Source: Octopus vulgaris
Taxonomy: Eukaryota
Length of the DNA: 64,000 nucleotides
Reading direction: 5' to 3'
NCBI GenBank assembly: GCA_951406725.2
Contig: OX597816.1
Coordinates: 59,706,001 to 59,770,000 of the forward strand
Part shown: in pieces, positions 5,765 through 62,456 of the stretch
Numbering within the stretch: the first letter of the stretch is position 1
Layout: each line of letters starts with the position of its first letter
Notes under the pieces: model-generated
Databases searched by the model: none
Told to the model about the DNA's origin: nothing
What the model saw: the letters and a program-made list of their open reading frames with translations, nothing else
Program-made: the position numbers and the translations under genes

Positions 5765-5955
5765 GAGAAAAACAACTTGTTTTAAATCTCTGAGTGAGAG
5801 ATATACAATAACAGTACAAAATAGTAATGTTTATATGCCAACAGAACATGGCAGTCATAAAGGACGATATTACTGTTGTTATAGCCCCCAGGAAAATATT
5901 TTTTCCAGCTAGCTATCAACACAGTCCGTATTCATATAGTATTCGCAAGGGAGGT
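5765..5955. mobile_element. Single diverged arm of the fold-back element family seen at 47.6, 48.4 and 61.4 kb
   Basis: TAAATCTC...AACAGTAC...GCCAACAGAACATGGCAGTC...TAGCCCCCAGGA...TCCAGCTAGCTAT is colinear with 48431-48570. Confidence 0.6.
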
Positions 5956-9550: not shown

Positions 9551-9650
9551 TTTCCCCAAGACACCTGAAGAAGGCTGGAGGGTATATCAGCTGAAACGTG
9601 TTAACAACAAACAAGATAAGGACAAATATCTGTCGAATGTAAATACTGTA
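9551..9650 (+). mobile_element. 5'-truncated copy of the tRNA-headed hammerhead SINE
   Basis: CCCCAAGACAC-CTGAAGA-AGGCTG...CAGCT-GAAAC-GTGTTAACAACAAACAAGAT..., same 3' half as the copies at 32.1, 40.8 and 51.3 kb. Confidence 0.85.
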
Positions 9651-32000: not shown

Positions 32001-32095
32001 ATTTTTATGTAGGGAAATAGAATTGGTTGAATCAACAGGGTTTGTTCTTCTGTGATTGTCAAATCTTTGATATTGTATTAAATCTTGGGAGCTTT

Positions 32096-32357
32096 TACAG
32101 TTCTATATTTAAGAGATGAGGAATTATTTATATTTGATGGATATGGTGTAGTGGTTAAGAGTAGGCTACTAATCCCCAAAATTCATAGTTCGATTCCAGG
32201 CAGTGACCTGAATAATAACATCGAAAAATACCTTATGAATGAGAACCCAGGTTTGAAATTTCCCCAAGACACCTGATGAAGGCTGGAGGGTATATCAGCT
32301 GAAACGTGTTAACCACAAACAAGATGAGGACAAATATGTCAAATGCAAATAATGTAC
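32096..32357 (+). mobile_element. tRNA-headed hammerhead SINE with an inverted copy of its own 3' tail in front
   Basis: 32096-32144 is the reverse complement of the family 3' terminus; A box TGGTGTAGTGG, B box GTTCGATTCC; CTGATGA 32273-32279, GAAAC 32301-32305; flanked by CTTGG(G/T)AGCTTT at 32084-32095 and 32357-32368. Confidence 0.88.
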
Positions 32358-37773: not shown

Positions 37774-39266
37774 AAGGTCTGTACTATGAGAACTATGGCA
37801 CATGTTGTAGTGTTAGTTATGACAATGCCTTATAACAGCAGTCCTCTTTCCATTCTGCGACCCTCATTCTAGATATCAGCAAAACCATTTACTGCAAGGT
37901 GAGGAGGAGGCAGAGTCAGTGAATGGGAAAGTGGACAGTGGGGTGGGGGTCAGCATGCTCCTCCTCTCCCAGTGGGTGGGGTGGTACTAGAAAGAAAACT
38001 AAAGATGAAACTGAGGGAGCAGGACAAACCTTCAAAGTAACATGTAAAAAAGGTTGCAAGAGGAGACAGGAGGTAAGAGATAGAAGTAGGGGCTGAAGTT
38101 AGTCAATTGTAAGTGAGGATGGAGTGCAATGGAAGTACAAGGCTTAAAAAAATACTGGGATCAATTCATTTAGCTAAAAATCCTTCAAGGTGGTGCCCCA
38201 GCATGGCCGCAGTCTAATGACTGAAATTAGTAAAAAAATAAATAAAGAATAAAAAAAGTAATGAAAATTAAATGGTGCTGGAATAAATCTTTGTGAAATA
38301 TTTTTGTGTAAATAATGGTTCTTCTTGGTTGCTTTTTTTCTACAGCAACTATTTTAAACTTATTGCTAATAACATATTTCGGTATGGCTGATGGCTCCTA
38401 TACATCGTGGATCTAGTTCTGTTTTATCTCACCATCGCTTATCTTTAGATTTAATCAAACTGTTGTTGTGGAACATTAGTTATATTCTATATTTTGATAT
38501 GATTTATATCTCCATTAAATAAACCAGATATTCCAATATTATGTTCACACTATTTGCTCCTGTTATCTGATTTAGCTAATGACTGTCTGGTTTGCTTTTC
38601 CCTCTATTGTTATACAAACCTGCAATAATTGTATAAATTAGCTTAAATTATCCAAATTGCTTGGTTTTGTTTTGCCTTTGCTTTTATAAAAGCAAGAAAT
38701 TATTGCATAAATTCGTTTAAATTACCCAAATTCTCTTTTCTACATCATGATTTTCATTATATTTTTTATGCCTGTTTTTCCATCTACTATGGGTTCGATG
38801 AGTATGCTGTTGAGGCATTGTTTTACAATCAGGTTTCCTTCCTACTGCAAATCCTTACATGCTTTTCAAAGAAGGGATTTCTTATTTTACTTGTCTTCGT
38901 AGGAGTAGGGCAGACAGGTTATTGTCAGAAGTGACAATGTCACTGATAGCAAAAGTAGCTTTCACAGAGCACATATGAAGGTAAATGCACACATGCATGT
39001 GTTTGCATGTATTTGATGACTTGTCAGTCTCTGTACCAAATTCACAAGGCTTTGGTCATGCTGGGGCTATAGTAGGAGGCAATTCTCCAAGGTGCGGTGC
39101 ATTGGGGCTGAACTCCAAACCATAAAACAGTTGGGAAACAAATTTCTTGACCACCCAGCTATTTCTAAACATGTATTAATTAGGTTAAAATATTTACTAT
39201 TGCTATGAAATGTTTGTGTGTGTATATAATTATTTAATCATTAATGTTTTTTTTTCTTCTTTTCAG

Positions 39267-39460
39267 TGGTTAGGTTTTTCCAAGAATATAGTGAACCAGA
39301 AGAAGGTGGAGAAACAATCAGCCAGCCACCTTCTCGTCGGGACATCAATCCTCTCCATCCTCCTCCGGCTGGTCCCTCTGAAGAAAACGTTTTGCTTCCT
39401 CTGCCAGAGAGCACACTCAACTGTAATTTAGGGATCCCTATTGTAGTACTTGTAACAAAA
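39267..39460 (+). CDS. DYNC1LI: Dynein LIC exon
   Basis: TTTCAG acceptor; LVRFFQEYSEPEE...VLLPLPESTLNCNLGIPIVVLVTK; GTAAGT donor at 39461; follows a ~25 kb intron; 194 nt. Confidence 0.96.
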
Positions 39461-39499
39461 GTAAGTACCCTATTCTCTAAGTCCTTCATGACTATATTC

Positions 39500-41030
39500 G
39501 TCTGAGACGCAGCTTCTTAATGCTGACTAGGGGTTGGCAAGGTAGTTAATATTGACTCCTGTGGGTGGGTCTTTGTGGCCATGCAAGCATTTGATAAACA
39601 CCTGGAATGTTTTTTAGCACTGAGGGTGCTGAATTGTTAAACCTGGAAGTGTCAGGTTATCTAAGGCTAAAACTCACTAGTTTCCAGCTAATACAATAAC
39701 TATTCATCCATTTTCTCCACCTACTATTCTAGAGATGGTCATTGGGGGTAGCATCCTTGGGTATCTCGCCCATGGGATCCTTTCAGAAGCAACTGGCTGG
39801 ATTCTCAACTGAGATGAAGAGTATTATCCAACCATTTTGTTCTTGATCTAATCACATGTTCATCATACTGGAACTGACCTCTCATTGTGGAGAAGTGGCA
39901 ACTCAACCTGGAGAGACTCCTTGATCTTCAAGTTATGCGCTCTATCGTTACTCCAGAGATCCTTCTGTGGAATCCCATTTTGGCTGCTTGTATTCACAAT
40001 TGTACTCTTTCAGTCTTTACCTAATATTTGTGACCAGAGGTGAGGACAAGCATGGAAACTGAATTGAAAATAGTAAGCTTGGCTTTTTTACCAACCACTT
40101 CTCTTTTGAGGATTGAATGCCAGAATTGGCACATTACTGAGCATCCAGTTTAGCCTCCTGCTTCCCATCACTTGTGTATATAACCCTGAGATACTTAAAC
40201 TTTTCCATGTCTTATTGATGTCACTAATATGCAGTGCACTCTAAGATGAGGTTTTTGAGAGGACCAGTGTCTCAGTTTTTGCAACATTAATTCTTGTTCC
40301 TGCCTTGCATCACCTGGCAATAAAATCATTCAATGCATGTTGGAGATCACCTTCTGAAGAGCTATGTTTGTTACACCATGTCGTTTGCTGATATCACTCA
40401 ACTGGTTCTTCATCCATCAATTGTGACACCACTTCTACAATGTCTGTGCATATCTGTGCAGTTCATAAAAATTCTGAAAAGGAAGGGTGACAATACACAC
40501 CCTTGCTGAAGTCCAACATTCATCTTCAAAGGTTTAGACTAAACTCCATTTGTACTCCATATGTACATTATTTACATTTGACGGATATTTGTCCTCATCT
40601 TATTTGTTGTTAACACAACGTTTCGGCTGATATACCTCCCAGCCTTTATCAGGTGTCTTTGGGAAATTTCAAACCTGGGTTCTCATTGCTAAGGTATTTT
40701 TCATCTTTATTATTATTATCATTCAGGTCATTGCTTGGAATCGAACTCGGAATCTTGGGGTTAGTAACCCGTGGCATAGTGGTTAAGAGCACGGGCTACT
40801 CACCCCAAGATTCCAAGTTCAATTCCAGGCAATGACCTGAATAATAATGATAATAATAATAATAATAATATTGAAAAATACCTTAGGAATGAGAACCCAG
40901 GTTCCCCAAGACACCTGATGAAGGCTAGAGGGTATATCAGTCGAAACGCTGTGTTAACAACAAACAAGATGAGGACAAATATCTCTCAAATGTAGAACTG
41001 TATTAAACTCCATTTAGCTAAACACAAACA
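39500..41030 (-). mobile_element. Decayed RTE-clade LINE reverse transcriptase fragment
   Basis: Minus strand around 40480-40551 reads NGV*SKPLKMNVGLQQGCVLSPFL (RT QG motif) and continues across the insertion; further FKYLR-like motif near 40190; stops and frameshifts; boundaries approximate. Confidence 0.75.
40552..41003. mobile_element. Head-to-head inverted dimer of the tRNA-headed hammerhead SINE
   Basis: Minus copy 40561-40772 abuts plus copy 40773-41003; exact 12-bp TSD TAAACTCCATTT at 40540-40551 and 41004-41015; interrupts an RTE RT fossil. Confidence 0.92.
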
Positions 41031-43464
41031 TCTGGTAAGATGATTGGGTCTGATCTGAGGGAAATGTCACTGTTCTTTGTAGCAGGTTGAGTAACCACAC
41101 ACAGGTTACTTTGTTTATAGTATTGTAGTTTAAAACTAAGACTGGGTCAGTACTTTAGAAATTTGAACTGTTCCTCTAATTTCTCTCATAGATTATAACA
41201 TTGCTCTGTCTGTCAATGTGAATATTACAACCATATTAATTACCGATGGCAAAATTAACAATGAATCAATAATACATCTTTTTATGGTCCTTGATCTCAA
41301 TTCATTTCATGTGTAGGATCTTGCTTTGTTGGGTATTGCTCTATCTTCTTAAGCCTACCTCATCTACAGACACAAACAAATGAGAAAGCTATGTTATCAC
41401 TCAACTGGTGAAACCTAGTAGCCATATTAATCTCTGTAAAGTCATACTTCACTGTCTGGACACATTAGATAATGTGGCCCTACTTGTTTTTAAATAAATG
41501 GTTCTGACTGGAACACTTTCGATCAGATGTTTGTTTGGTCTAGGTTGACTTGGAGTTAAACTACAGGTATTTTATCATAATTTTAGACAAAAATAAGAGA
41601 ACTAACTTAGTGACCAGTGGCATGTTTTTGAGCAACAGATTATTACAAGTTTATCAAATAGCATATTACATAGATTCTTGATTTATTACACATTATCTCT
41701 GCCTCTAAGAGATGTCTCATAATTACCAAAAGGCAGTTAACTTCACTTGAGAAAGGGAGATAATCTCAAGATTGAAGAATTCTCCAAAATTGACATGTCA
41801 TTAAAGAAAAGAAGACTGGTGGACAATTGTGAACATGTTTCTCTGACCTTTTGCTGTTCATTAAATTTTCATTTGAAAACAATTATTTCGCGCATTCTTT
41901 GATAATACATTTCAGTTCTACATGTGTTTTTCTCATCTCAGAGATTCTAACCGGCAAGAATGGCTGAAAACAACTAAGACAGTAATTGCCATTTTCTAAC
42001 TGCTTCAAAACAGAACTTCCTCAGAGATGGAAATCTTTTAGTCATTTCGATCATTATGTCCAACATAATGTATGAAAATTGTTGCAGTATTATCTGGTCC
42101 CTTAATGTTGTTTTCTGTCTGTAAAAATTGAAGTAGCAATGATAGCACACTGCGTGAATAAGATTTACAAGATCAAGATTTATCAGGAATAATTACAAGT
42201 TCAGCACATCAACTTGGTCTTTGTGTATTTTGTTTGTCATGCAAAGACAAGAATCCTGATATCTAGATGAAAATATTAAATTAATGTAATTGTAGATGAG
42301 TGGTTTGTGTTTAATGTTGGCCTTTACATGCATGTAATGTTGAGGCATAAATGCGTGGGTATGTTGGGAACACATCTTCTTGAGTGGTAGTTGTTTAGCT
42401 CCAGGTCAGTCTTCATCATTTGATGTGCCTCTTGTCTGCTGGCATGGGTTGGATGGCTTCATAGGATCAAGCAAGCCACAGGACTGCCTCGAGCTCCATT
42501 GCCTGCTTAGGCATGGTTTCTATGCCAACCACTTTGCAGTGTCTATTGGGGGCTTTTTCCTCATTCCACCAGCACTAGAAAGTTACTTGCAAGACAGAAA
42601 AAAGACTAGAGTGGGAGAAAGGGAAAGGTAAGCTCACCCTACTGTAGGAGGTGGGGTTGAGGCAGAGGTAGTTTTATGCTAGATGTTTGAGAGGCTAAAG
42701 TATGATAGAGGTGTTTGGCGATTGAGGTGATGCATAGCTACCCCACATTATATATAAGAGTGGGTGGTTGTAGCTGGGGGAAGATAAAGATGGTAGTAGT
42801 AGGGGACAGAGCAGACTCTCAAGGTACAAGGTAAGCATCAGAGTGAATGGTCGTGACTATCCTGTATTTTTAATAGTATCTAGGAGGGGTTGAGGGAAGT
42901 TTGGCTGTTGTTTCTTGCAAGTAAAGGTTCCCTTATTGGTTCATTCATTATATTTCAGTTGATGTTATGTCGTTCATGGCCCATGGTGGTTTCTGCAATC
43001 AATTATATCAGTTACTGTCCTTTTATAGGAAACTAATTTCCTGTTAGTCTGTAACATAATACTCTTCCCTGTATTCCTGTAACTTTAGTCAATGACAAAA
43101 GATGTTTGAGATAAAATGATTGAAGTATTTTAGATTGTGTGGGATTGAAGAAAGATGTTGGCTGGCTTCTTGCACAATTGTGAAACTTGTTTATTCCAAT
43201 TATCTGCATGAGATTAAGACGTTGGACAAGAGGTTCCTTTCGTCATCACTTCATCATTGCAATTGAATAGGACAAATAACCTGTGTGTCAGGCTGCTTGC
43301 CTGACAATGAGGTTCCACTCTCATTTCACAATTGAGTATTTAGAAGAGAGAGAAATATCTTGGAAAAAGAAAAAAAAATGCCCAACCCATTATAGTATGA
43401 TGGAGGGGATGGAAATCAGTTAAAAATTAATAATTAAATTATAATTCTTTCTTTTTTTTTTCAG

Positions 43465-43558
43465 ACTGATACTATTTCTGTTTTGGAGAAGGAACATGAT
43501 TATAAAGAAGAGCATTTTGACTTTATCCAGCAACATTTGAGGAAATTTTGTTTAAACT
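43465..43558 (+). CDS. DYNC1LI: Dynein LIC exon (ends at U12-type donor)
   Basis: Poly-T + CAG acceptor; [31 protein letters not shown](Y); donor GTATCCTTC at 43559; 94 nt; not in ORF track. Confidence 0.96.
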
Positions 43559-45299
43559 GTATCCTTCAACAAGAAATATGCTTATCAATGTGGTAGTTGG
43601 GATATTTTAAGGGCTTTACATACAGTTTCAGGGGAAGTGTCTTTAACTGTAGTCATGGACCAGCCAAAGCTTTGTGAGTGAATGTGGTAGATGGAAACTG
43701 AAAGAAGCCTGTTTGTGTATGTACTCTCCAAATATTGTGAGTTACGAGCAATTGTCTTATGATAACAACTCATCTGCCAGCTTTACACCTTTTGAATATG
43801 TGTAAAAATGAAGGGTTACTGAGAGAAAGGACATCTGGTTGTAAAATTAAAACCTTTTTTTCAACTTGAAAAAAAACACAAAAAAACTGGCACTCCTTCA
43901 GTTACGATGACAAGTGTTCCAGTTGATCCGATCAGTGGAACAGCCTGCTCATGAAATTAACATGCAAGTGGCTGAGTACTCCTCAGATATGTATACCTTT
44001 AACGTTGTTCTCTGGGAGATTCAGTGTGACACAGAATGTGACAAGGCTGGCCCTTTAATTGTCAGTTGAATGGACTGCAACAACATGAAATAAAGTGTCT
44101 TGCTCAAGGGTAAGATGCTCTGCCGGAAATCAAACTCCTGACCTTATGATCTTGAGTCTAATACCTTAACCACTAAGCTAACATGCTTTTCACTTTGTCT
44201 AACTTATGCTGGAAAGGAATAACAGATATAACATTGAACAAACGGAGTTAGATCTTTGTGTATTTAGGTCCACAAGGACCTTTTGTGGAGAGCTTGGGAT
44301 AAGGTTTGAACAGAACAATTTCATTGTCTTCTATCATTCTTTAGGACTAAATCCCTATGGATATGAGTCCTTATATAAAACCCACAGTGTATTCTGCCAA
44401 AAAGGTCCTTTGTGAGCCAAATTTCACTGTAGACCAGACGTATTGTTGTGACTCCATTTATATTTATAAAAGTTAGATGTCTTCCATGTTCAAGATGATA
44501 CAGTCTCAGTTTATACTTCCTTACTTTCAAATTCTAATGTCCTATAATTTGTGTATAACAATTTACTTTATTGATAATTATCATCCTCCTCATTGTTATT
44601 GAGAGAGAGAAAGGCAGTGAGCTGGCAGAATCATTAGCACACTGGGTGAAATACTTAGCGGTATTTCATCTGACACTACGTTCTGAGTTCAAATTTTGCC
44701 AAGGTCGACTTTGTCTTTCATCCTTTCGGGGTCGACAAATTAAGTACCAGTGTAATCGACTAGTCCTCCTCCCCCAGAATTTCAGGCCTTGTACCTCTAG
44801 TGGAAAGGATTATTGAGAGATAGCAGTGCATGCCATCAAAGTGACACTGGGGTATAAATATATGAAGCCCAATATACTCATCATGACTACCCATCTGATA
44901 AGGGTACGTCAAGCATTTGCATCACAACCTCATGTGCACGACATGATGACTTCATATCAAGATAAATGGCACATTCTGCTCAAAAGGTCCCTGAATAAGG
45001 GTTGTTTGAGGATAGTGAATGAAAAACCCATGTTTCCAAGGATGAATTCTTTGAACCCTAAAGAACCCCTGTCAACACATGGCTATTGAGACTTTCCTAC
45101 TACTTCTGCCTGTGATCAGAGATGCACATATTGTCAGCCACTAAGGGACATGCTCAACTGGTTATGTTCAAACAACTGACAACCAAATCTGGTATTTAGC
45201 AGTATATTTTCTGTAGCCCATCTTTTACACCAATACAAAACCTGTACATAACCCTTCCAAGATCAGAACTCTGAGGGCCACTGCACTAGTATTATTATT

Positions 45300-46131
45300 A
45301 GGAAGAGGTTCGTTTGGAGAAAAAGAATCTTCGTTTTCAACACAGATGGCAGCACTCGTTTGTGTGTGCAATGAGAGCTAACAGTGACCTTCACTCAGCA
45401 GTGTACCAAGTGACATCACTGTGTTTACTTTTCAAGTAGTGAACTTTGTGTTTTTGTGTTCACGTGTGTCTACTGTAGTCTGTGATTTTATCATGGACAA
45501 GAACAAAGAGCCAACGTGAATTTCGTGTTAAACTACAGAGACATTGAGCATGCCTCAGCAAGTTTACAGCGACAAGGCAATGGGTCATAGGCAATGTTTT
45601 GAGTGACACGGGTGCTTCAAAAACAGAAGACCTGTCACAAGTGTCACCCCCAGAAATGTAGCATTGTGCATCAAGAATTCATCCCTCGAGCAGGCCATCA
45701 ATCTAGAATTCTACTGCGGCATTTTGAAGCATTTGAAGGAGGACATTCGACAAAAGCGACCAGATCTGTGGAGTATGAAGAATTGGTTTCTTCATAGAGC
45801 CCTTCTCACTTATGAGTTTTTCGGCAAAAACAACTTGTCTACCTGCCCTATTTCCCAGATTTAACACCTGCGGACTTCTATCTCTTCCCCAAGATGAAAA
45901 TGTAGCACTAAGGTCACCATTTTAACACAGTTGTCAAGATATAGAGAGACTCACAGAAGATCCTCAACTTGCTTCTGGAAAATTACTGCCTGGCCAGATT
46001 CCAAAAATGGCAGGAACACATGGACTGGTGTATTGCTGTGCAAGGTTGCTATTTCGAAAGAGATGATGTTAAAACATAGGCAAATGATTTATTTTTTTAA
46101 ACATAACTAGTCTGGGAACCTTTTGATACCA
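45300..46131 (+). mobile_element. Internally deleted mariner transposase fossil
   Basis: Fragments IVHQEFIP, QAINLEFYCGILKHLKEDIRQKRPDLW..KNWFLH, YFPDLTPADFYLFPKMK (YSPDLAPxD motif) and WCIAVQGCYFE; frameshifted. Confidence 0.88.
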
Positions 46132-46256
46132 TCTCAGACATTCCAATATCCAAACTATTACAGTCATTATTAGCATGGTAAAAAATAAATGTAAAGTGAT
46201 TTTCCAAGATATTTTACTATAAAATGATGTACTATTTGACCAATGTATTTTATATA

Positions 46257-46479
46257 TTGGTTAGGTGCATAATTATTGTGGCTTTTTTCAACAAATTTTA
46301 TTCAACAAAAACAGCTTTAAATGATTATTCCGAAGCATATTCACCATCTACTTCAATTACTGCTTCCCATTTGCTTGGCAGATGGTCAGGCCGTCATTTA
46401 AAAATGTTTTTGTTAAATATTGTTATTGTTGAATAAAATTTTTTGAAAAAAACGCTGCAATAATTATGCACCAGCTCAA
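46257..46479. mobile_element. Mariner-type MITE
   Basis: TIRs TTGGTTAGGTGCATAATTATTGTGGC / reverse TTGAGCTGGTGCATAATTATTGCAGC, resembling mariner TIRs; TA at both ends (46255-46256, 46480-46481). Confidence 0.85.
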
Positions 46480-46560
46480 TATAAAATGGTGATGTACTAT
46501 TTGATCAATGTATTTTATCTATAAAATATGAGATGTCGTAAGCTTTCTTTAACCCTGAAG

Positions 46561-46696
46561 ATGGTACTGCCCTAATATATACATCTGTGAAAGAGGAAAA
46601 GAACTGTGATCTTTTGTTTAAGTATTTGGTCCACAGGATATATGGATTTTCATTCTCAATGCCTGCATATGTGGTAGAAAAAGATTCTGTGTTTGT
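46561..46696 (+). CDS. DYNC1LI: Dynein LIC exon (follows U12-type acceptor)
   Basis: (Y)[44 protein letters not shown](V); preceded by TTTCTTTAAC-CCTGAAG; GTAAGT donor at 46697; 136 nt. Confidence 0.96.
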
Positions 46697-47571
46697 GTAA
46701 GTGTTTATTTGGTTTTTCTTTCCCTCCCCCTCTTAAAATGTCTTCTATAAAAACTGTTTTATATTGTTGTGATTGCTGGAAAGTCTAGATCACTTCTGAT
46801 TATGTATATGGTATTTTATGATTTAGAAGTGCTGGTGCCATGTAAAAAGTACCCAGTACACTTTTTGTAAAGAGGTTAGCATTAGAAAAAAACATCCAGC
46901 TGTAGAAACCATTCCAAAGCAAAGGAACCTGGTACAACTCCTGGCCGTGCCATTTCCTGTCAAACTATTCCACCCATGTCAGCATGGAAAACTGACATTA
47001 AATGATGAACTTGTCTTGCTTAAAAACGCCATTTTACTCCATGGGTTGGAAGGTCAGTTCTTATTTGGGACCACTACCCTCCATAGTGTGGCGAATGGCC
47101 TGTACCCTTCTCATTTGTTTTCTTTTTGACATAGTTCCTACAATAGGACACCCTTCCTGACACCGACCACTTTATATATTGAGTGCAACTGTTTTTTCAT
47201 TGCTATTTATGCTACAGTGTCACTGTTTTAAAATGGAGTTTCTTTTGGAGGAGACTTGTTGACAAAGAAAAAATAATAAACCAATTGTTTTAATTCTCAG
47301 GTTTTACTCTTGTGCCTGGGAAGGCTTCTATAGTTTACTTGTTAATATAAGTTGGCATAGGATCCTGTAACCTGTTAATTGCTGTTTAATCTTTTGACCT
47401 CCTTGAATCCGTCTCTGTTAAACAGCTTATTTGTTGTACAAAGCTAAAGTTGTTATCTGAAGGTAAAACTATTGGACCTCTGCCAGTAAATAGCAGTTTC
47501 AGTGACAGAAAGTCGGTGAGCCATTTCCCAAGATGTTATTAAGTTGTTATCTTTTAACTTAACCTCCATTA

Positions 47572-47965
47572 TTGGTTTAGGACGAATATTGCAGTCATTT
47601 AGCCTTAGGAGACATTGTCTCCAGCTGGCTATATGACATGATCTGTGTCCTTATATTTTCGAACAAGGGAATTTTGCACTCCCCACTCAGCTCAAAACAA
47701 TATCTGTGTATTGTTATTTCCTGGAAATTGTGATACACAAATATTGTTTTGAGCTGAGTCGGGGTGCTAGATTCTCTTGTTCGAAAACAATAAGAGCACA
47801 GATTGTGTCATATAGCCAGCTGGAGACAATGTCTCCCGGGGCTAGATTACAGCAACATCTGTCCTAAACCAAGACTGCCATGTTATGTTGGCAAATAATC
47901 TTTACTCTAAAGTACTGTTGTTGAATATCTCACATTGTGAGATTTAAAAATAGTAATTTTCTAAT
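47572..47965. mobile_element. Asymmetric fold-back element upstream of exon 48080
   Basis: 47573-47720 is the imperfect reverse complement of 47724-47872, with an unpaired extension to ~47964; 13-bp direct repeat TTAACCTCCATTA at 47559-47571 and 47966-47978. Confidence 0.88.
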
Positions 47966-48079
47966 TTAACCTCCATTAGGTAGAAATTTGTTGTTTTGGT
48001 CACGCTTTTCTTTTAGATTTCTCTTGAGGAATTTCAGATTTCAACCTTGAATTCTTTCTCTGTTTTTCTTTTAATCTAG

Positions 48080-48191
48080 TCCTGCTGGTTGGGATACAGA
48101 AAAGAAAATATCTATTCTAAATGAAAATCTTGCAAACATGAAAGCTGAGGACCTGAGTGAAGATATTCCCAGTAAACCAGTTGTAAGAAAG
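48080..48191 (+). CDS. DYNC1LI: Dynein LIC exon (PAGWD motif)
   Basis: TCTAG acceptor; [37 protein letters not shown]; GTAAGC donor at 48192; 112 nt. Confidence 0.96.
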
Positions 48192-48412
48192 GTAAGCTTG
48201 CCTCCCAGCTCCTTGGCTTCGGGTTTAGCCTCACTGTAAGTGGGCAAATGTCTTCTATTTCAGCTGTGGCTGACCAAAGACTTGAGTGGATTTAGCTGAT
48301 GGAAATTGAAAGAAACCCATCATTGTGTGTGTGTGTGTGTGCCACCCACTCTACAGAGTGTACAGGATGCATTTTCCTTGGTGCGCCTTGTAACTTTCAA
48401 GACAAAAGCCTC

Positions 48413-48813
48413 TTAGAAAATTATTATTTTTAAATCTCAGATATTCAGCAACAGTACTTTGGAGTAAAGATTGTTTGCTAACATAATGTGGCAGTCCTGG
48501 TTTAGGACAAATGTTGCTGTAATTTAGCCCCAGGAGACATCGTCTCCAGCTAGCTATACAACACGATCTGTTGTGTTACATTTTCGAAAATATCTGGTGC
48601 TACATATAAATGAAGGGAGATAACCCGTAAATCACAATACACAGATATTGTGTTGAGCTGAGTGGGGGTGCTAGATTCCCTTGTTCGAAAATATAAGGAC
48701 ACAGATCATATCGTATAGCCAGCTGGAGACGATGTCTCCTGTGGCTAAATTACAGCAACATTAGGCCTAAACCAGGACTGCCATGTTATGTTGGCAAACA
48801 ATCTTTACTCCAA
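48413..48813. mobile_element. Asymmetric fold-back element downstream of exon 48080 (same family)
   Basis: 48458-48590 is the imperfect reverse complement of 48684-48814; direct repeat CAAAAGCCTC at 48403-48412 and 48811-48820. Confidence 0.88.
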
Positions 48814-50115
48814 AAGCCTCATACTTGAGAGGGGAGTGGAAGAGGGGGGAAATGATTGTAAGCCAGGTGAGAGGGACAGAGATAGTTGCCTTTTTCTATA
48901 GAGGAGATTGTTGGCCACCCCAGTAGGATGAGGAAAGAGAAGGAACTGGGGGAGAGATTGTGTTGGGGCCTACCCACACTGAACAGTAGGGTGGGGTATA
49001 AGTAGTACAGAGGAGGATGTTCAATAAGAGTGTAAGGGGATGGAGTTAAATCCCACAGACATTTACTAGATTGCTTGTATTCCCTTATTCTTATCTTTTC
49101 ACAATATATTTTGATATTTGCAGTTTCCATTATACATCTATCCTCATTTGTCGTGGGTGCCTGGTTCCTCAAAAAATACAATGGTGAATGAATCCTCTCC
49201 AGTCACTTAGTAAATGGAACAAATGATAGATTCAGTGACTTCAAACCCATGGCTCACAGTAGCAAAGCTTCCAACATCACATAGTTTCTTGCTCTTGTCA
49301 ACCGTTTTCTGAAGAAAATGCAGTTGTCTGTGTTGTTTGTTAGGATCTGGTACCTTCATGTTTTCTCTGTTCACTCATCTTGTGTTGATGGCTAAAAGCA
49401 GCTGAGCACTGTGGATGGTCAGCATGGTATGCTTTTGTGATAAGTGGAATCTTCAACTGATCATTAATCCATGTTATTACAGATCAATCAGTGATAAACG
49501 GAGCTACATATATTTTCTTCCATCTCAAAGAATGGAAATATTTCAATGCCTTATATGTCTACATTTCCTTCCTGTTACCTTAGACACAGAAAACTTTGTT
49601 TTATTACTGTATTGCACTAACCCTCCTCCCCCACAAGTACATTTCAGGAATTTTAAAAATTTATCAGTTTTATAATCTTTAAGTGTAGATAATTTTTTTT
49701 TAATATTGAAGAAAGGAAAGGAAAAAAATCTAGAAAATTCAATTTTTCTGAAATATGGGAATGCAGTGATAAATGTTTTTTTTAAAGTATTTGACCCCAA
49801 GATTTGCTAAGGGAAAAGTGAAAAAGTAGCATTGATTTAAATGGGTTTCATATAAAGGAAATGGATTCCAATAACTTGAAATGGGTGAATTAAATTGCTG
49901 CTATCCGAGCGTGATCATTGCCAAGAACACGGATTGGCTCCTGTGCCAGTGACACGTGGAAAGCACCATTCGAGCATGATCGTTGCCAGTGTTGCCTTAC
50001 AGGCACATGATAAACAACATTCAATGCCAGCATGGAAAGTGGACGTTAAACAATGATTATGATAGATTATTGTCAGCAGTTTCTTTTGTAATAATTCTTT
50101 TCTGTATATTTGCAG

Positions 50116-51262: not shown

Positions 51263-51512
51263 TATGGCGTAGTGGTTAAGAACACGGGCTACTAACCCCA
51301 AGATTCCAAGTTCGATTCCAGGCAGTGACCTGAATGATGATAATAATATCGAAAAATTCCTTAGGAATGAGAACCCAGGTTCGAAATTTCCCCAAGACAC
51401 CTGATGAAGGCTGGAGGGTATATCAACTGAAACGCTGTGTTAACAACAAACAAGATGAGGACAGATATCCGTCAAATGTAAATACTGTACATAATTACTC
51501 ATAAATATAGAT
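51263..51512 (+). mobile_element. Full-length monomer of the tRNA-headed hammerhead SINE
   Basis: A box TGGCGTAGTGG 51265-51275, B box GTTCGATTCC 51310-51319, hammerhead 51396-51441; possible TSD AGATTCC at 51252-51258 and 51515-51521. Confidence 0.9.
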
Positions 51513-56328: not shown

Positions 56329-56450
56329 TTGACAAGGCTGCCGTAACTCGTGATGCTGCTGCCGAGCTGGACCGATTAAATCGAACTAAGAAAACAGTAA
56401 CTGCGGATGGTTCTCCCAGAGGTTCTAATGAGCCAGGCACGCCGACATAG
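56329..56450 (+). CDS. DYNC1LI: Dynein LIC terminal coding exon (helix 2, stop)
   Basis: TTTCCAG acceptor; VDKAAVTRDAAAELDRLNRTKKTVTADGSPRGSNEPGTPT*, containing the conserved DxxAELDR; TAG at 56448-56450. Confidence 0.94.
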
Positions 56451-57065
56451 AGGTCTTCTGTAGTCAATATGGCTTTGTGCGGCAGCCAACAGGATTATAA
56501 GTATGCATGGATGAATGAATGCTTACCAGAGAGGACTCTGTCTAGTCATCAGACTGTCTGTTGCAAACCATTACAGTTGCTGGTTATTCATGCCCCATCA
56601 TGTCAATGTTAACATGTTGATCTTGCCACAAATCACCTGTTAACAGCTCTATTCTGAGAAATCTGGCTCTCTCTCTCTCTCTCTCTCATTTTCTTTTTTT
56701 TTTTATATTGCTTGACCTATTTTTTTTTTTCAGCTCTGCCAATTCCTACAAAAGTCTCCTCCACCCATTGTTGCCTTGCCACTCCCTTGTAGGAAATATG
56801 TGTGTGTTTATGTATGTATACACACATGTACATATGTCTGCATATATATATATGTATTTGTATATACATGTGTGTACACATACACACACATATATAGATT
56901 TATATATATATTAATAATAAAAGGGTAAAATTTATTAATTAAATTAATTAATCAATCAATTAATTAATAATTTCACCAAGTAGATCGGTACATTAAAATA
57001 ACCTTTATAGGTAAAATTATACGAATATTTTATAATTATAAACATAATTATAATTATAAAATATT

Positions 57066-57120
<55 letters not shown>

Positions 57121-60100
57121 CACCTCCAATTGTGTAGGATTATCTTACACTTTCCAGCCCATTTGTCTAAATCTTCTCTCCCTTTCTAACTGTTTTGGTA
57201 ATCTATAGGTCCCTTCTTTTTAATCCAAATTCTTCCAATTTCTTTTCTACATTCTTATCATAACTGCAGCCAATTATTGTCTGCTAGCAGGAGGGCTCTT
57301 ATATTTTCAGGTTAGGTACATTAGTTTAAAGATGGCCTCCTCACTATGTTTGACAGTTTAGAAATAGTAAATGTAAGCAGTTATTGTCAGACTGGGGCTT
57401 GCCATCTTCTAGCTTCGTTGCTGAAACCAGATGGGATTAGAAGGATAAGAATGCATGGACTAGTCTGTACACAACACTTGGATATTGAGTTCATTTTCAA
57501 TGGTTTAAACATATTGGTTTAAGCTAGATTTATTTATTCACCTACTGCTCCCCTTCCCCCACCACTTCCCCCCACCCAAATTCAACAGCAGTCCAGAATA
57601 ATCTTAGGTTCATTAGAAAACCATTTTCGTTTCTTTCTAATGAATGGCATAAAGATTTTTTGAAAAGCTGAAACTGACTTTGTGCCAGAGATCCCAGCGC
57701 TGTAAAGGCAGGGACCGAGTATTCCTCTACTTATTGTGTTCTAACATTCTTCTGCAATGCATTCATCGTGAATTCTAGGCCCAGAGCTAACCCTGAAGCC
57801 GCAGGCCCTGTTGTGTCAAGGAGAATCTGTTTTTCTGCTCTCCCCCCTCATCTTTGCTGACAGCAGTGGACTATGTGTCAACCTTGTACAGAACAACACG
57901 TTGACTTTTTCAAAAGATAAATTTTGAGAAAAAAGTATAAAAATAAACACAGTGAAATATACTAAAACACCACATCCTCCTTGAAAAAAAATGTAAGAAT
58001 GTTTTTATTATATAATTTATTAACATAATAATTTTAAATATTATTGTACATCGGTCTTGTTTGAAATACAATACATATACATGTGTGTGTATATATGTGT
58101 GTATGTATGTATGTATATATATATGTATATATATATATGTATATATATATGTGTATATATATGTATATATATACACACACACATACACACATAAATATAT
58201 AAAGTGTTTCATTTAGGAAAGAAAAAATACAAATTATAAAAAATTTCCAATATTCAATGTGTATCCTTAGATGCTTGTATTTTATTGCGGCTGAAAATAT
58301 ATATTTTTTAAACCTGAGTTATTTCTGTTCCCCGTCCCACCACATCCATTCTTAATATCTATCAACACTCCTTTTTATGTATGTCCATGTTCCTTTTTTC
58401 TTTTCTTCTCTGTCTGTAATAAATTTCTTCACAACATCTCTACATTTTCTCTCTCGCTGTCCTAGTTTGGAATCTCTCTGTCTGTCTCTCTCTCTCTCTG
58501 TTATTTTTAGTCTTTAGCTTCCACTCCCAACTTCCCTGCTGCCGCCACTACCTTCCGTCTCCAAAATATTTGTTTTATTACTTCTGTCAGTGGTGTTCCT
58601 TACATATTTGTAATTAAAGCAAAATCTACATCATTAAACCATTAAAACGTTTTGCTTTGTGTCCAGCAGCCAGTGATGTTAACCCTAACCCTAACCCTCA
58701 ATACTGTGATCCTTTACATTGTTGCCAGACACTGCAAAATATGTAACCCTGGCTCTGGGAACATTGCTACTATCAATCTTTAGGGAGTTTGCATGTCCCC
58801 TCTCCTCCTCATCGTCCTGCCTCTCCTATGAATATTCCATAATATGGTAAGTTACTCTTTCTCTCTAACTTTTTTTTTTTTTTTTTTTTTTACTTTTGAG
58901 ATTGTTTAATATTTTTTTAACCCCATTTAATTATTAACATTATGAAAAATTAAAATTAATGGAGACTTCTTCACTAACAGTGAGTTACAGTATCTGATTC
59001 ATGAAATGCAATGTTGTGTATTGAATTTCTGTTTGACTTCGGGTATCAATAAGCATTTGGTAACAAACTGAAGTCTTAACAACCCAGTAATTTATACCTT
59101 TAAATTATTTCCAATAATGATTCGGTGCCAAGCAGCAAATCATTTGCTTTCCAGTTTAGTAGTAAACCAGATTATTTTAATTTTCCCTTCCTTAGTCACT
59201 CCCCAAACCCTTTAATAACTTGGTCCCCCTTTTATGTCTCACTGGCTTCATTAGTAAATTAGACCTACAGGTTTTAGGCTTAATGATATGCTGAAATTGT
59301 TAAACCTTTGGTGTGCTTAATGGAACAAGGCGTCAACAAGAGTTTGTGTCCCTAAATTAACCTAAATATTTTAATTGGTAACCTTGATGATGGTCATTAC
59401 ACCATCCCCTCTTTTTTCCCCACAATATAACAAAGGCTAAAAATCAAAACTATAACTGGCCCCAAAGAGGGACATTCTTCAGGCCACAACATTTGTTTCC
59501 ATTCAGAAAAAGTCAGTGCTTTCTCAAAGTGTGTACATGTGAGTGTGTTTGTATGTATGTATGTATGTGTGTGTGTGTGTATCTAAGTATATACACATAC
59601 ATTTGTGTCTTTCTTTGTTAAATCACTTTCAGGGACTAATGTCTTTGAAATCAGAAGCGAAATGATTTCCATGTTTACTCTGGGATGTTAGTTATTTGAG
59701 GATTATATCACCATTTTGTGTGTGTGTGTATATTTTAGTAGCATATCTTCCTTATTGCAGCACCCCCAACCCTTCTTCTGCCCTGCCCCTCTCCCTCACC
59801 TCTCTCGACCATTTTACTAGTTATAAACCATCTCTCTTTGTGGAATGACTAAACAAGTCTCTTAATTATGTTCAAGGCATCTTCAGACCTTTTAGTGTTG
59901 CAGTTAAATGCGGCCCATTTGTTTGACTGTTCAAAATCAAGGCTGATTTGCCTTGCTTTACTTATTTTCTTTGGTGCCGCCACAATCTCTGACCAAAATT
60001 TATAATTGGTTAATGTGCTTGTGAAGCTTTCGGACCAACTGATTGTGCCTCAGCTCAGCAAGTCATTTATTATTAAAACAAATTTTTTTTTTAATTTTAA

Positions 60101-61302
60101 TTTTTTTTTCCTGTTTCTGTTTTACAAGAAATTTGTTATCAGATCTGTTCAAGCTATTTCTCGTCTTTGGTTTGCCAGACGGAGTTTGATTGCTTGTGTA
60201 AATGGTATTGTGATAACTCTGATTGTGAAGTTCTCAAATATTTAGATATTGAGCCAACATCATTATCCCAAATATTTACTTAAAACAAAACAAAACAAAA
60301 CAACAAAAAAAAAAAAGAAACAAAAAAATCCTGTCTTAAATTAACAAGAAACAAAGTAAATTTCTTTAAAGCATTATGTAGCTTCAGGGAGTCTCTCTCT
60401 CTCTCTCCTCATTACAAATATATTTCATTCAGTATCAAGCCACTGATATGGTGAGTATCACATCCTGTGATCTTAGCGTCTCCTGACAAAGGCTTCAACA
60501 AACCCTAGCAGCTGGTCTCTCAATATTCTCATCAATGTCAATAGAAACCCAACTGCTCTCATTTCAAAGACACAACTACACTGTAAATATCTTTATTTTA
60601 ATTAAAACAAATAATCAATTATATATTCTCAGTCTTTTACTTCTACAGCTGCTTTAAGGGGTTACTCTATTAAACACAACTGCGGGGAGCTTACTCTTTA
60701 TCTCAAAGGTCACCAGAGTCTAGAAGTGTGTATGATTTATTCCCATAAACCACAAAACTAACGGGGCTTTTTAATTTTATTTTTGATTTAATCCCCTGCA
60801 GACATTGCTAAAATTTTGGGGACATTTAAAATGCAATTTGAAATATGCACTCAGTGGTTTTACCTATTCAGTTTCACTTGTGTTTGTGTATACATATGTG
60901 TGTGTGTAGGTATATATATGTATATATATAGACACATACACACACACATACATACTCACACACATCTAATTTGTGATTTAAATTGTTTTGATTTCAAAAG
61001 AAATAAATCTGAATTTTTTTTTTCAATTTGTGACATTTTCATTAATGTAGGCTTAATTTCATAACTTAATTGACACATTTTAATAAATTTAGCCTTCAAG
61101 TCAAATTGCCCGGTAATAATTCTAACCTTCGTTTCGTTCTCCTGTTAATTGGCCTTCTAATTGTACTTTGATAGCTAAACCTTTAGATCATGGCTCTAAT
61201 TGCTAATAAGGCTTCTGTAAGCCACTCTGAATTTTTGTTCTTGTTTCCCCCTTTATACTTGTGTAACATTGTAACTGGGTTTGGCTCAACATTTAAAATA
61301 AA
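56451..61302 (+). other. Putative long 3' UTR of the dynein LIC gene
   Basis: About 4.9 kb after the stop with no recognisable copies of the SINEs that fill the introns; AATAAA at 56916, 57942, 58418, 61082 and 61297; true end unknown. Confidence 0.5.
56790..58200. repeat. Clusters of (TA)n/(CA)n/(TG)n microsatellites
   Basis: Runs at ~56798-56910, 57067-57114 and 58070-58200; similar runs occur throughout the window (e.g. 3406-3436, 27800-27858). Confidence 0.9.
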
Positions 61303-61377
61303 GAATTCTTCACAAAGAATTGCCTTTTGTTTTTTGTTTTTCAATTGTTTGCTCATTACCAATAACTTCACTTTGAA

Positions 61378-61800
61378 AATAGAAATAATACATTTCTAAA
61401 TCTCTCAGAAAGATTTATGCAGTAGCAGCACGGTAAAGTGATAGTATGTTGTCAACTTAATGTGACAGTCCCATGAAAGGGAAGATTCTACTGTTATTTA
61501 GCCCTGGGAAGCACCATTTCCTGTTGGACTTGACACATTTCCTTTGTCCTTATGTTTTCACAGGCAGATAAGCATCGACAGCTAGTAAGCCATGCTACTA
61601 CAGACTGATGATGAGCAATGACTCTGAAACTAGTCTCTGGATGATGCTGGCTTTGGTAGGTGGAGGTGCTTGTCTTCACTTTGAAAACCTAAGAAAATAT
61701 GTCGAGTCCAACAGGAAACTGTGTTTCCTAGGGTTAAATAACAGTAGCATTCTTCTTTCATGGGGCTGTCACATTAAGTTGACAATATACTTTCACTTTG
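61378..61800. mobile_element. Fold-back element with hammerhead ribozyme in its loop (diverged relative of the 47.6/48.4 kb family)
   Basis: Arms ~61435-61576 and ~61665-61799 are inverted; arm motifs CAACTTAATGTGACAGTCC and TATTTAGCCCTGGGA resemble CTAACATAATGTGGCAGTCC and AATTTAGCCCCAGGA of the 48.4 kb copy. Confidence 0.8.
61601..61639 (+). ncRNA. Minimal type I hammerhead ribozyme
   Basis: CAGA-CTGATGA-TGAG caatga CTCT-GAAAC-TA-GTC-TCTG: helix I CAGA/TCTG, intact core, helix II GAG/CTC (closing pair T-T mismatch), palindromic helix III ACTAGT, GUC cleavage after 61635. Confidence 0.8.
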
Positions 61801-62131
61801 TCATTTTTTCAGTTGTTATTGTCATCTTAACGTCTACTTTTTCCTGCTTGCATGGGTCAGATGGCATTTGTTGAAGTAGATTTTCCACTGCCTAAACTTC
61901 ACCTATTTCCAAGCCAGGTAATATTTCCCCTTCGTCATATGCTTCCTCGGAAGATTGGAAACGAGCAACTTTGCTTGTTTGATGCTGATGCTGCTTTACA
62001 TCAAAAGAAGGGAATGTGTATACAGGTTGGTTGGGCTAAACTTGATGACTTTTTACGTCTTCTTTTTACAAGAACAGCTTGGTGCATTGGTGAACTGTCA
62101 ACAGCATTGGCGAGCATGACGATTAAAGTTG

Positions 62132-62456
62132 TACAGTTCTATATTTAAGAGATGAGGAATTATGTACATTTGATGGATATTTGTCTTCATCTTGTTTGTT
62201 AACACGTTTCAGCTGATATACCTGTCATATCTCTCAACTTGTCTTTCTTCCTTATTGCATACCTTGTTGTCAGCTGGGCATGCTATATCTATGATCCAGC
62301 ATAGTTTGTTCTCTTTCTCAATTAAGACTATGTCTGGCTTCCTATTCTCTATCTCATGGTTGGACTGAATCATGAAATCCTATAGGATCTTTGCATTTTT
62401 ATTTTCGACAATGCCTTCGGGTTTATGGTCTGCACTCTTAACCACTATGCCATATG
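62132..62456 (-). mobile_element. Chimeric hammerhead-SINE copy with internal R4/Dong LINE fragment
   Basis: Minus strand: SINE head ATGGCATAGTGGTTAAGAGTGC (62431-62456), then HKPEGIVENKNAKIL*DFMIQSNHEIENRKPDIVLIEKENKLCWIIDIACPADNKV (62224-62430, REL endonuclease PD..D motif), then SINE 3' half from the hammerhead loop II to the terminus (62132-62223). Confidence 0.8.

Follow-up and report, generated by a model that had tools for sequence, protein, structure and literature searches.

The window, that is, the whole 64,000-nt stretch of Octopus vulgaris DNA analysed here, carries at 61367-61800 an inverted repeat with a hammerhead ribozyme in it, and this locus raises the question of what the element is and by which route it entered the genome. 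The segment belongs to a dispersed 348-nt repeat with a type I hammerhead, i.e. a non-LTR retrozyme, of which it is an old copy and probably a weak one. As regards the route, it is likely that we see an old, fixed copy of this non-coding unit, inserted in trans by a Penelope-like RT-endonuclease. The single window copy is ordinary; the interest is carried not by this copy but by a rule on insertion ends at the family level and by a LINE inserting before the hammerhead. The features of the locus are given below in window positions, together with positions in the 348-nt monomer; A and B denote two priming sites within the unit.

61297..61302, + strand: AATAAA, a weak candidate for a distal polyadenylation signal of the dynein light intermediate chain (DLIC) gene that lies upstream.
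61367..61375, + strand: TTCACTTTG, the left-hand repeat of the probable target-site duplication; its last 4 nt are found in the element as well, as microhomology at site B.
61376..61563, - strand: antisense arm, monomer about 160-347, with its 3' end at priming site B and a tail of about 57 nt.
61551..61563, no strand: head-to-head junction, 13 nt common to both arms.
61551..61799, + strand: sense arm, monomer about 34-288, with its 3' end at priming site A; tail-less, holding the ribozyme.
61579..61591, + strand: site at which a LINE has inserted in other copies (monomer 62-74, duplicated upon insertion); empty in the window copy.
61601..61639, + strand: type I hammerhead, with helix I at 61601-61604/61636-61639 and the core at 61605-61611.
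61626..61635, + strand: hammerhead, continued, with GAAA at 61626-61629, the palindromic helix III at 61629-61634 and the predicted cut after 61635.
61792..61800, + strand: right copy of the probable duplication, mostly overlapping element sequence at site A.

The RNA fold of 61367-61800 is one long rod (-213 kcal/mol, z = -18), equalled by none of 100 shuffles. The first-pass annotation had described a fold-back with two inverted arms, and the arms are borne out: 61435-61544 pairs with 61691-61799 at 85-93% in two ungapped blocks. Their limits, however, have to be redrawn. The antisense arm, previously extended to 61576, spans 61376-61563, and what had been taken for its full terminus is priming site B, beyond which the unit continues round into the ribozyme. 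The sense arm, placed earlier at 61665-61799 and called truncated, begins at about 61551 and includes the ribozyme. The junction between the arms (61551-61563) corresponds to the self-complementary base of the element's long stem (monomer 34-46 with 160-172). The copy thus described ends at B on the left and at A on the right, with a duplication of 9 nt. The duplication suggested before is supported: TTCACTTTG is present at both 61367-61375 and 61792-61800, and a duplication of at least 9 nt appears by chance in 1.7% of 1500 mismatched-locus controls. Its right copy, however, is largely element-like (TCACTTT). An exact 14-nt repeat (61366-61379/61674-61687) has been rejected as the duplication, its second copy being internal element sequence.

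The window copy is 89-94% identical to the consensus, like its sister copies. Of three other organisms, two have its left junction and one of these also the right, and the insertion is therefore old. No empty site was found among the joints listed for four contig sets.

The hammerhead string at 61601-61639 is confirmed, with a predicted cleavage site at GUC 61633-61635. The exact 39-mer occurs in 85 genome copies against 0 for the reversed control, so the string is not due to chance. Core conservation in the homologues, a set selected by similarity, is 94-100%, with CUGANGA ... GAAA ... UH present, and a search for the core together with the palindromic helix III gave 868 genome matches against 6 for the control. 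The earlier wording, a near-intact ribozyme with only the helix II closing pair mismatched, overstates this copy while misreading the mismatch. Helix II consists of a U·U followed by 3 bp, and the U·U is the family consensus rather than decay; the first pair varies among relatives (C·A, A·U or U·A). Helix III is the palindrome ACUAGU, i.e. 2 bp round a 2-nt loop, and cannot close alone. Position 61600, which provides the fifth pair of helix I, is A in the window copy and C in about 97% of the family depth, so that helix I is shortened to 4 bp as against 5-6 in the family; a 3-nt insertion follows helix I. Diverged families keep the same hammerhead layout in other letters. As its only ribozyme has a damaged helix I and lacks a partner, the window copy probably cleaves poorly and probably cannot release a monomer. 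Rfam scans of the window and of 61540-61720 matched no hammerhead model, and the C/D-box and microRNA matches in the window are below the gathering scores. The axolotl hammerhead HHR_Amex2 has the same U·U at the base of helix II and is described as a weak cleaver on its own that gains from dimerization (PMC7229834); a short palindromic helix III is a reported mark of hammerheads acting as dimers (PMC4209133).

The family has been characterized in the genome of 2.80 Gb, assembled in 227 contigs. Two DNA searches gave 1,369 and 1,388 candidate places, with 40 scored in each; the loci were picked by similarity, not randomly, and 80 have been used after 10 of 90 were dropped as duplicates. Two arms are present in 53 of these 80 loci, which, with about 1,370-1,390 candidate places, bears out the claim of many hairpin insertions in this genome. 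The suggested large source of dsRNA has to be weighed against arms that diverge from each other by about 14% within a locus. The consensus unit converged from 29 loci and has a length of 348 nt and a GC content of 40%. It possesses no true terminus: the arms pass the unit end into its start and on through the ribozyme, and 16 arms in the 80 loci are longer than one monomer, the longest with 643-740 nt (about 2.1 units). No long tandem array was found among the loci examined. The circular fold of the unit (-122 kcal/mol, z = -8.9, 60 shuffles) places the ribozyme atop a long stem. As far as the sequence allows it to be classed, the element is a non-LTR retrozyme by its testable features: (i) a 348-nt non-coding unit; (ii) one type I hammerhead; (iii) head-to-tail reading. 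A MITE with terminal inverted repeats has been rejected, since the arms are of variable length and do not end at one common site but at two.

Two relatives of the unit were compared with it. In a subfamily 85% identical, 6 of the 117 pairs are compensatory, 5 are kept by one-sided changes and 8 are broken, in a comparison of two consensuses. A second family, of 347 nt and 63% identical to the 348-nt unit, has the same layout; here 30 of 117 pairs are broken, 10 are gapped and 13 are compensatory, in an alignment that is imperfect round the ribozyme. Contigs of the family are abundant in runs of three other organisms and also occur in a single run guessed to be RNA. Common A/G variants outside CpG are seen across loci at monomer positions 278 and 332; they might mark subfamilies or reflect A-to-I editing of the RNA template. 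At one locus (L128:707-5728), a 2.3 kb segmental tandem repeat, 98% identical, carries one retrozyme arm per unit.

The insertion ends follow a strict arrangement. In all 53 two-arm loci the antisense arm precedes the sense arm (0 opposite), and both 3' ends face the flanks. These ends fall into two clusters, site A at about 277-293 and site B at about 340-348, about 57 nt apart. Both ends could be classified in 43 of the 53 loci; 42 are A/B or B/A, one is A/A and none is B/B, which has a P of about 1e-11 if the ends are independent. Single-arm loci end at A (12), at B (13) or at neither (2). The rule is replicated in the 85% subfamily (7/7; 13 two-arm loci among 30) and in the 63% family (18/18; 21 among 30), so that the three families pooled have one end at each site in 67 of 68 classifiable loci, beside 19 loci left out of the count with an end at neither site (10/53, 3/21 and 6/13 for the main, 63% and 85% sets, respectively).

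A duplication of at least 8 nt, with a mode of 12, borders 34 of the 53 two-arm loci, as against 3.0% of 1500 mismatched pairs. In the 63% family a duplication of at least 9 nt is found in 13 of 21 two-arm loci; the 85% subfamily, with C·A at the base of helix II, shows one of at least 8 nt in only 4 of 13, three of them simple repeats. The copies sit in unrelated AT-rich flanks. Priming by homology has been set aside as weak: the mean match is 1.4-1.5 nt versus 0.4, with a control that understates the null about twofold.

Head-to-head arms, a one-sided tail and duplications of 8-14 nt support mobilisation of Penelope type. Inverted copies, a tail at one end and duplications of 8-10 bp are described for Penelope-like elements (PLEs) in the accessible parts of PMC3846280 and PMC8557442, and a purified PLE protein reportedly cuts both strands and extends them, with priming at two internal positions by which the tail is delimited (PMC11167929). 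According to the same source, ribozyme cleavage is not needed by this protein. In an arm-selected set, 2 of 49 arms end no more than 10 nt from the cleavage site, 14 read through it and 33 break off before reaching it; there is no pile-up of arms at the site, in keeping with a PLE protein that does not need ribozyme cleavage. A cleaved linear monomer as the main template has been rejected, only 2 of 49 arms stopping near that site. The proposal of a shared Penelope-type pathway holds for its Penelope-type part, which the family anatomy supports; the hammerhead family at 32.1 kb may share it.

The retrozyme appears to insert like a PLE, yet is not itself an autonomous PLE. No ORF with RT plus GIY-YIG was found in the unit or joined to it in the loci examined; two PLE queries revealed no PLE ORF tied to a retrozyme copy in 128 loci, and eight other loci with core plus palindrome have no PLE ORF nearby. 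One young intact PLE family, examined as autonomous partner, has no similarity to the unit. That the unit is instead the pseudo-LTR (pLTR) of an autonomous PLE, the copies being truncated insertions of that element, is unlikely. The anatomy is indeed that of pLTR insertions, and Xenopus retrozymes are described as homologous to pLTRs (bioRxiv 10.64898/2026.07.22.740005); however, the long arms run from the unit start into the unit's own end and not into an ORF, none of the loci examined has a PLE ORF attached to a copy, and a short helix II with a long helix I is the retrozyme type rather than the minimal PLE type. The PLE family examined as partner is a very young one, reached with a PLE RT fragment (L159:1643-4291, L160); it has intact frames of at least 883 aa in tandems of 6.2 kb, and those of its loci that were scanned revealed no canonical hammerhead core.

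Many retrozyme copies are interrupted at monomer 62-74, and this target is duplicated round an insert of 1.7-2.5 kb with a zinc-knuckle ORF. Both insert junctions are visible in three loci, and one locus carries two tandem inserts with the target between them. The insert is a LINE, which together with its shorter derivatives lies 22-32 nt upstream of the hammerhead core, with duplications of 12-18 nt and tandem arrays (examples: L125:6377-9436, L126:7031-9172, L127:6789-9176, L293, L289). The copy L293 has zf-CCHC, Exo_endo_phos, RVT_1 and zf-RVT domains above the cut-off. A related intact LINE has a 1140-aa frame with APE endonuclease, RT and zf-RVT; it forms a tandem array with an 18-nt duplication and ends in a retrozyme relative 59% like the unit. 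From its resemblance to known elements, the LINE may belong to the Tx1 clade; its Atlas hits bear generic names only.

A search with the LINE 3' end gave 201 candidates, from which 30 loci were taken, 3 of them already known. Downstream of these 30 ends lie this family (11), the second family (6), other hammerheads (3), the target plus another insert (5) or none of these (5, two of them with the 13-nt target), so that 25 of 30 are at retrozyme targets (20 at hammerhead families and 5 at the target plus a copy). As a mark of target specificity, PMC4494074 uses more than 20% of flanks, and here 20 of 30 ends adjoin a retrozyme hammerhead family. One of the ends (L290) lies in unrelated sequence, and in the 5' flank of one array (L292) the target was not seen. 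Genome-wide, the LINE end motif is present 22-40 nt before a hammerhead core in 145 matches versus 20 in the control; about 89 of 100 matches listed out of the 145 look, by eye, like family hammerheads, and among the matches listed 7 lie about 1.1 kb past RT matches on the same strand. Some of the 145 may be later copies of one insertion. The targets comprise several retrozyme families only 59-66% alike. In a tree of the 30 LINE ends, 2 of 27 branches are well supported; the target labels cluster in part, and the tree is of little informative value.

An APE-type LINE, possibly the retrozyme-inserting one itself, could be imagined to mobilise the retrozyme by L1-like twin priming, 5' inversion through twin priming being known for L1. 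The retrozyme-targeting LINE is abundant, has intact copies and makes duplications of 12-18 nt. We nevertheless regard this origin as very unlikely: the LINE goes to retrozyme sites whereas the retrozymes lie in unrelated AT-rich flanks, the two arms have overlapping sequence and stop at two fixed positions inside the unit, and the retrozyme has neither poly(A) nor a shared 3' tail.

The preferred reading is insertion by a PLE protein, and it remains to account for the two arms. Of 39 two-segment loci, 20 have a tail-less A arm that extends upstream beyond the B arm by more than 15 nt (89 nt in the window copy), and in those loci the A arm cannot be a copy of the B arm. At shared sites, divergence is 14.1% between the arms of one locus and 13.5% between arms of different loci, and an origin of both arms from one RNA molecule is not supported by these values. 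At two common variant sites the arms of one locus disagree in 13/34 and 12/34 loci; rare variants are common to both arms in 0.76% within a locus versus 0.28% between loci (2.7 times). We read this as pointing to two primings, mostly on different templates from related sources. A single primed cDNA that folds back or primes itself, so that the second arm copies the first, has been proposed, in the form of self-priming, for PLE palindromes (PMC3846280); the arm starts lie within 25 nt of each other in 7 of 39 loci, and the 2.7-fold sharing of rare variants would also fit. This origin is nonetheless highly improbable in view of the longer tail-less arm, a within-locus divergence as large as that between loci and the disagreement at common variants.

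With two primings by a PLE protein, the sequence of events would be as follows. The source RNA would be a tandem transcript or a circle, processed by paired hammerheads. A dimer of the PLE protein would nick both target strands about 12 nt apart, and cDNA synthesis would start from one free end at B and from the other at A, mostly on separate RNA molecules or units. The two cDNAs would then be joined where they are complementary, in the window copy at the base of the RNA's own stem, with repair filling the gaps. We lean towards the combined view that a superfamily of about 350-nt retrozymes is subject to asymmetric PLE insertion, with two fixed primed sites and mostly different templates, and that a LINE lands preferentially 22-32 nt before hammerhead cores of families about 60% alike. 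If this is true, the LINE transcript might be cleaved by the ribozyme of its host element, at about 55 nt beyond the LINE 3' end.

The genomic neighbour of the window copy is the DLIC gene on the + strand, for which 4 of 139 scanned frames match PF05783. Its exons lie at 39245-48236, and the last coding exon is presumably, by resemblance, 56330-56451. In one run guessed to be RNA, a single contig has its end at 61311, which is 9 nt beyond AATAAA. The gene may include 56330-61311, with a possible 3' UTR of 4.9 kb that would end about 55 nt before the retrozyme copy; this assignment is weak. That the copy has been kept, its sense hairpin and ribozyme past the DLIC polyadenylation site affecting 3' end formation or termination, is extremely improbable: its sense orientation, its place about 55 nt past the end of that contig and the sharing of the left junction with two other organisms and of the right with one would suit such a role, but its identity to the consensus (89-94%) is like that of the sisters, a helix I pair is lost, sharing with close relatives needs age alone and the RNA end rests on one run.

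Compared with known systems, the octopus family resembles the animal non-LTR retrozymes, for which the accessible text of PMC7229834 and bioRxiv 10.64898/2026.07.22.740005 gives a non-coding monomer of 150-450 nt (348 here), one type I hammerhead, a strong fold and duplications larger than 4 bp. In contrast to them, the octopus copies are dispersed, mostly partial and often inverted, and do not form long tandem arrays. Active retrozymes are defined by tandem copies with at least two complete ribozymes; the longest octopus arms span about two units, and the window copy has a single ribozyme. The link between retrozymes and PLEs in these two papers, in the parts available, relies on co-occurrence and pLTR homology and not on insertion anatomy; no mollusc is included in the accessible part of the survey of bioRxiv 10.64898/2026.07.22.740005.

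With the endonuclease-bearing PLEs the family shares the head-to-head inverted copy, the tail at one end, duplications of 8-14 nt, two internal priming sites, a hammerhead with a palindromic helix III and read-through across the cleavage site (PMC3846280, PMC8557442, PMC11167929, PMC4209133). Unlike the PLEs as there described, it has no ORF, and its tail measures about 57 nt rather than 30-40. In contrast to the PLE accounts, the rule of one end at each site has here been counted (67/68), and the arms look like products of different templates. Neither an octopus retrozyme nor such a count for PLE twin priming was found in the open-access literature; published supplements may list such families. 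The entry of animal retrozymes into DNA and the formation of inverted copies and tails in PLEs are both called unresolved in the accessible parts of bioRxiv 10.64898/2026.07.22.740005 and PMC8557442, respectively. The retrozyme families offer a natural template that is short, has its two priming sites mapped and obeys a strict rule, one site per end; this rule predicts an asymmetry in the PLE protein dimer, and the insertion scars tie retrozymes to PLE machinery.

LINEs of the Tx1 clade are described as targeting multicopy loci, such as U2 genes and DNA transposons (Keno in U2, Tx1 in Tx1D, and Tx1-Mar; PMC4494074). The retrozyme-targeting LINE is similar to them in its zinc-knuckle ORF1, APE endonuclease and RT, tandem arrays and fixed place of insertion, and differs from Keno, Tx1 and Tx1-Mar, as described there, in that its targets are hammerhead retrozymes, entered 22-32 nt before the core. 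No hammerhead-targeting LINE was found in the open-access literature. If a LINE does follow hammerheads from one diverged family to another, this would extend the range of targets by a new class, and the question arises of how an APE endonuclease finds sites that share little but a ribozyme core at a near-fixed distance.

Other hammerhead elements have been noted in the window and the genome. Two two-arm copies of the 347-nt family lie at 47573-47968, which is the Rfam MIR841 match, and at 48413-48814, which has B/A ends and the probable duplication AAAAGCCTC. A single arm at 5769-5952 on the - strand, 72% like the second family, probably represents a third related family. Eight loci (L094, L098, L100, L102, L103, L104, L109, L112) contain older, diverged hammerheads with the same palindromic helix III but a longer helix II, all of them dissimilar to the unit; in L102 and L104 there are spaced repeats of 315 nt and about 800 nt. 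A tRNA-headed hammerhead family is present at 32093-32357, 40563-40992, 51263-51490, 9551-9650 and 62129-62222. The copy at 32.1 kb had been said to share the layout of the locus at 61367-61800: inverted copies do occur in both, but the tRNA-headed element is, by eye, a linear one and not a self-closing unit. For the ribozyme of this family the genome contains at least 1,268 exact matches, and inverted pieces and two 3' end positions are frequent among the copies.
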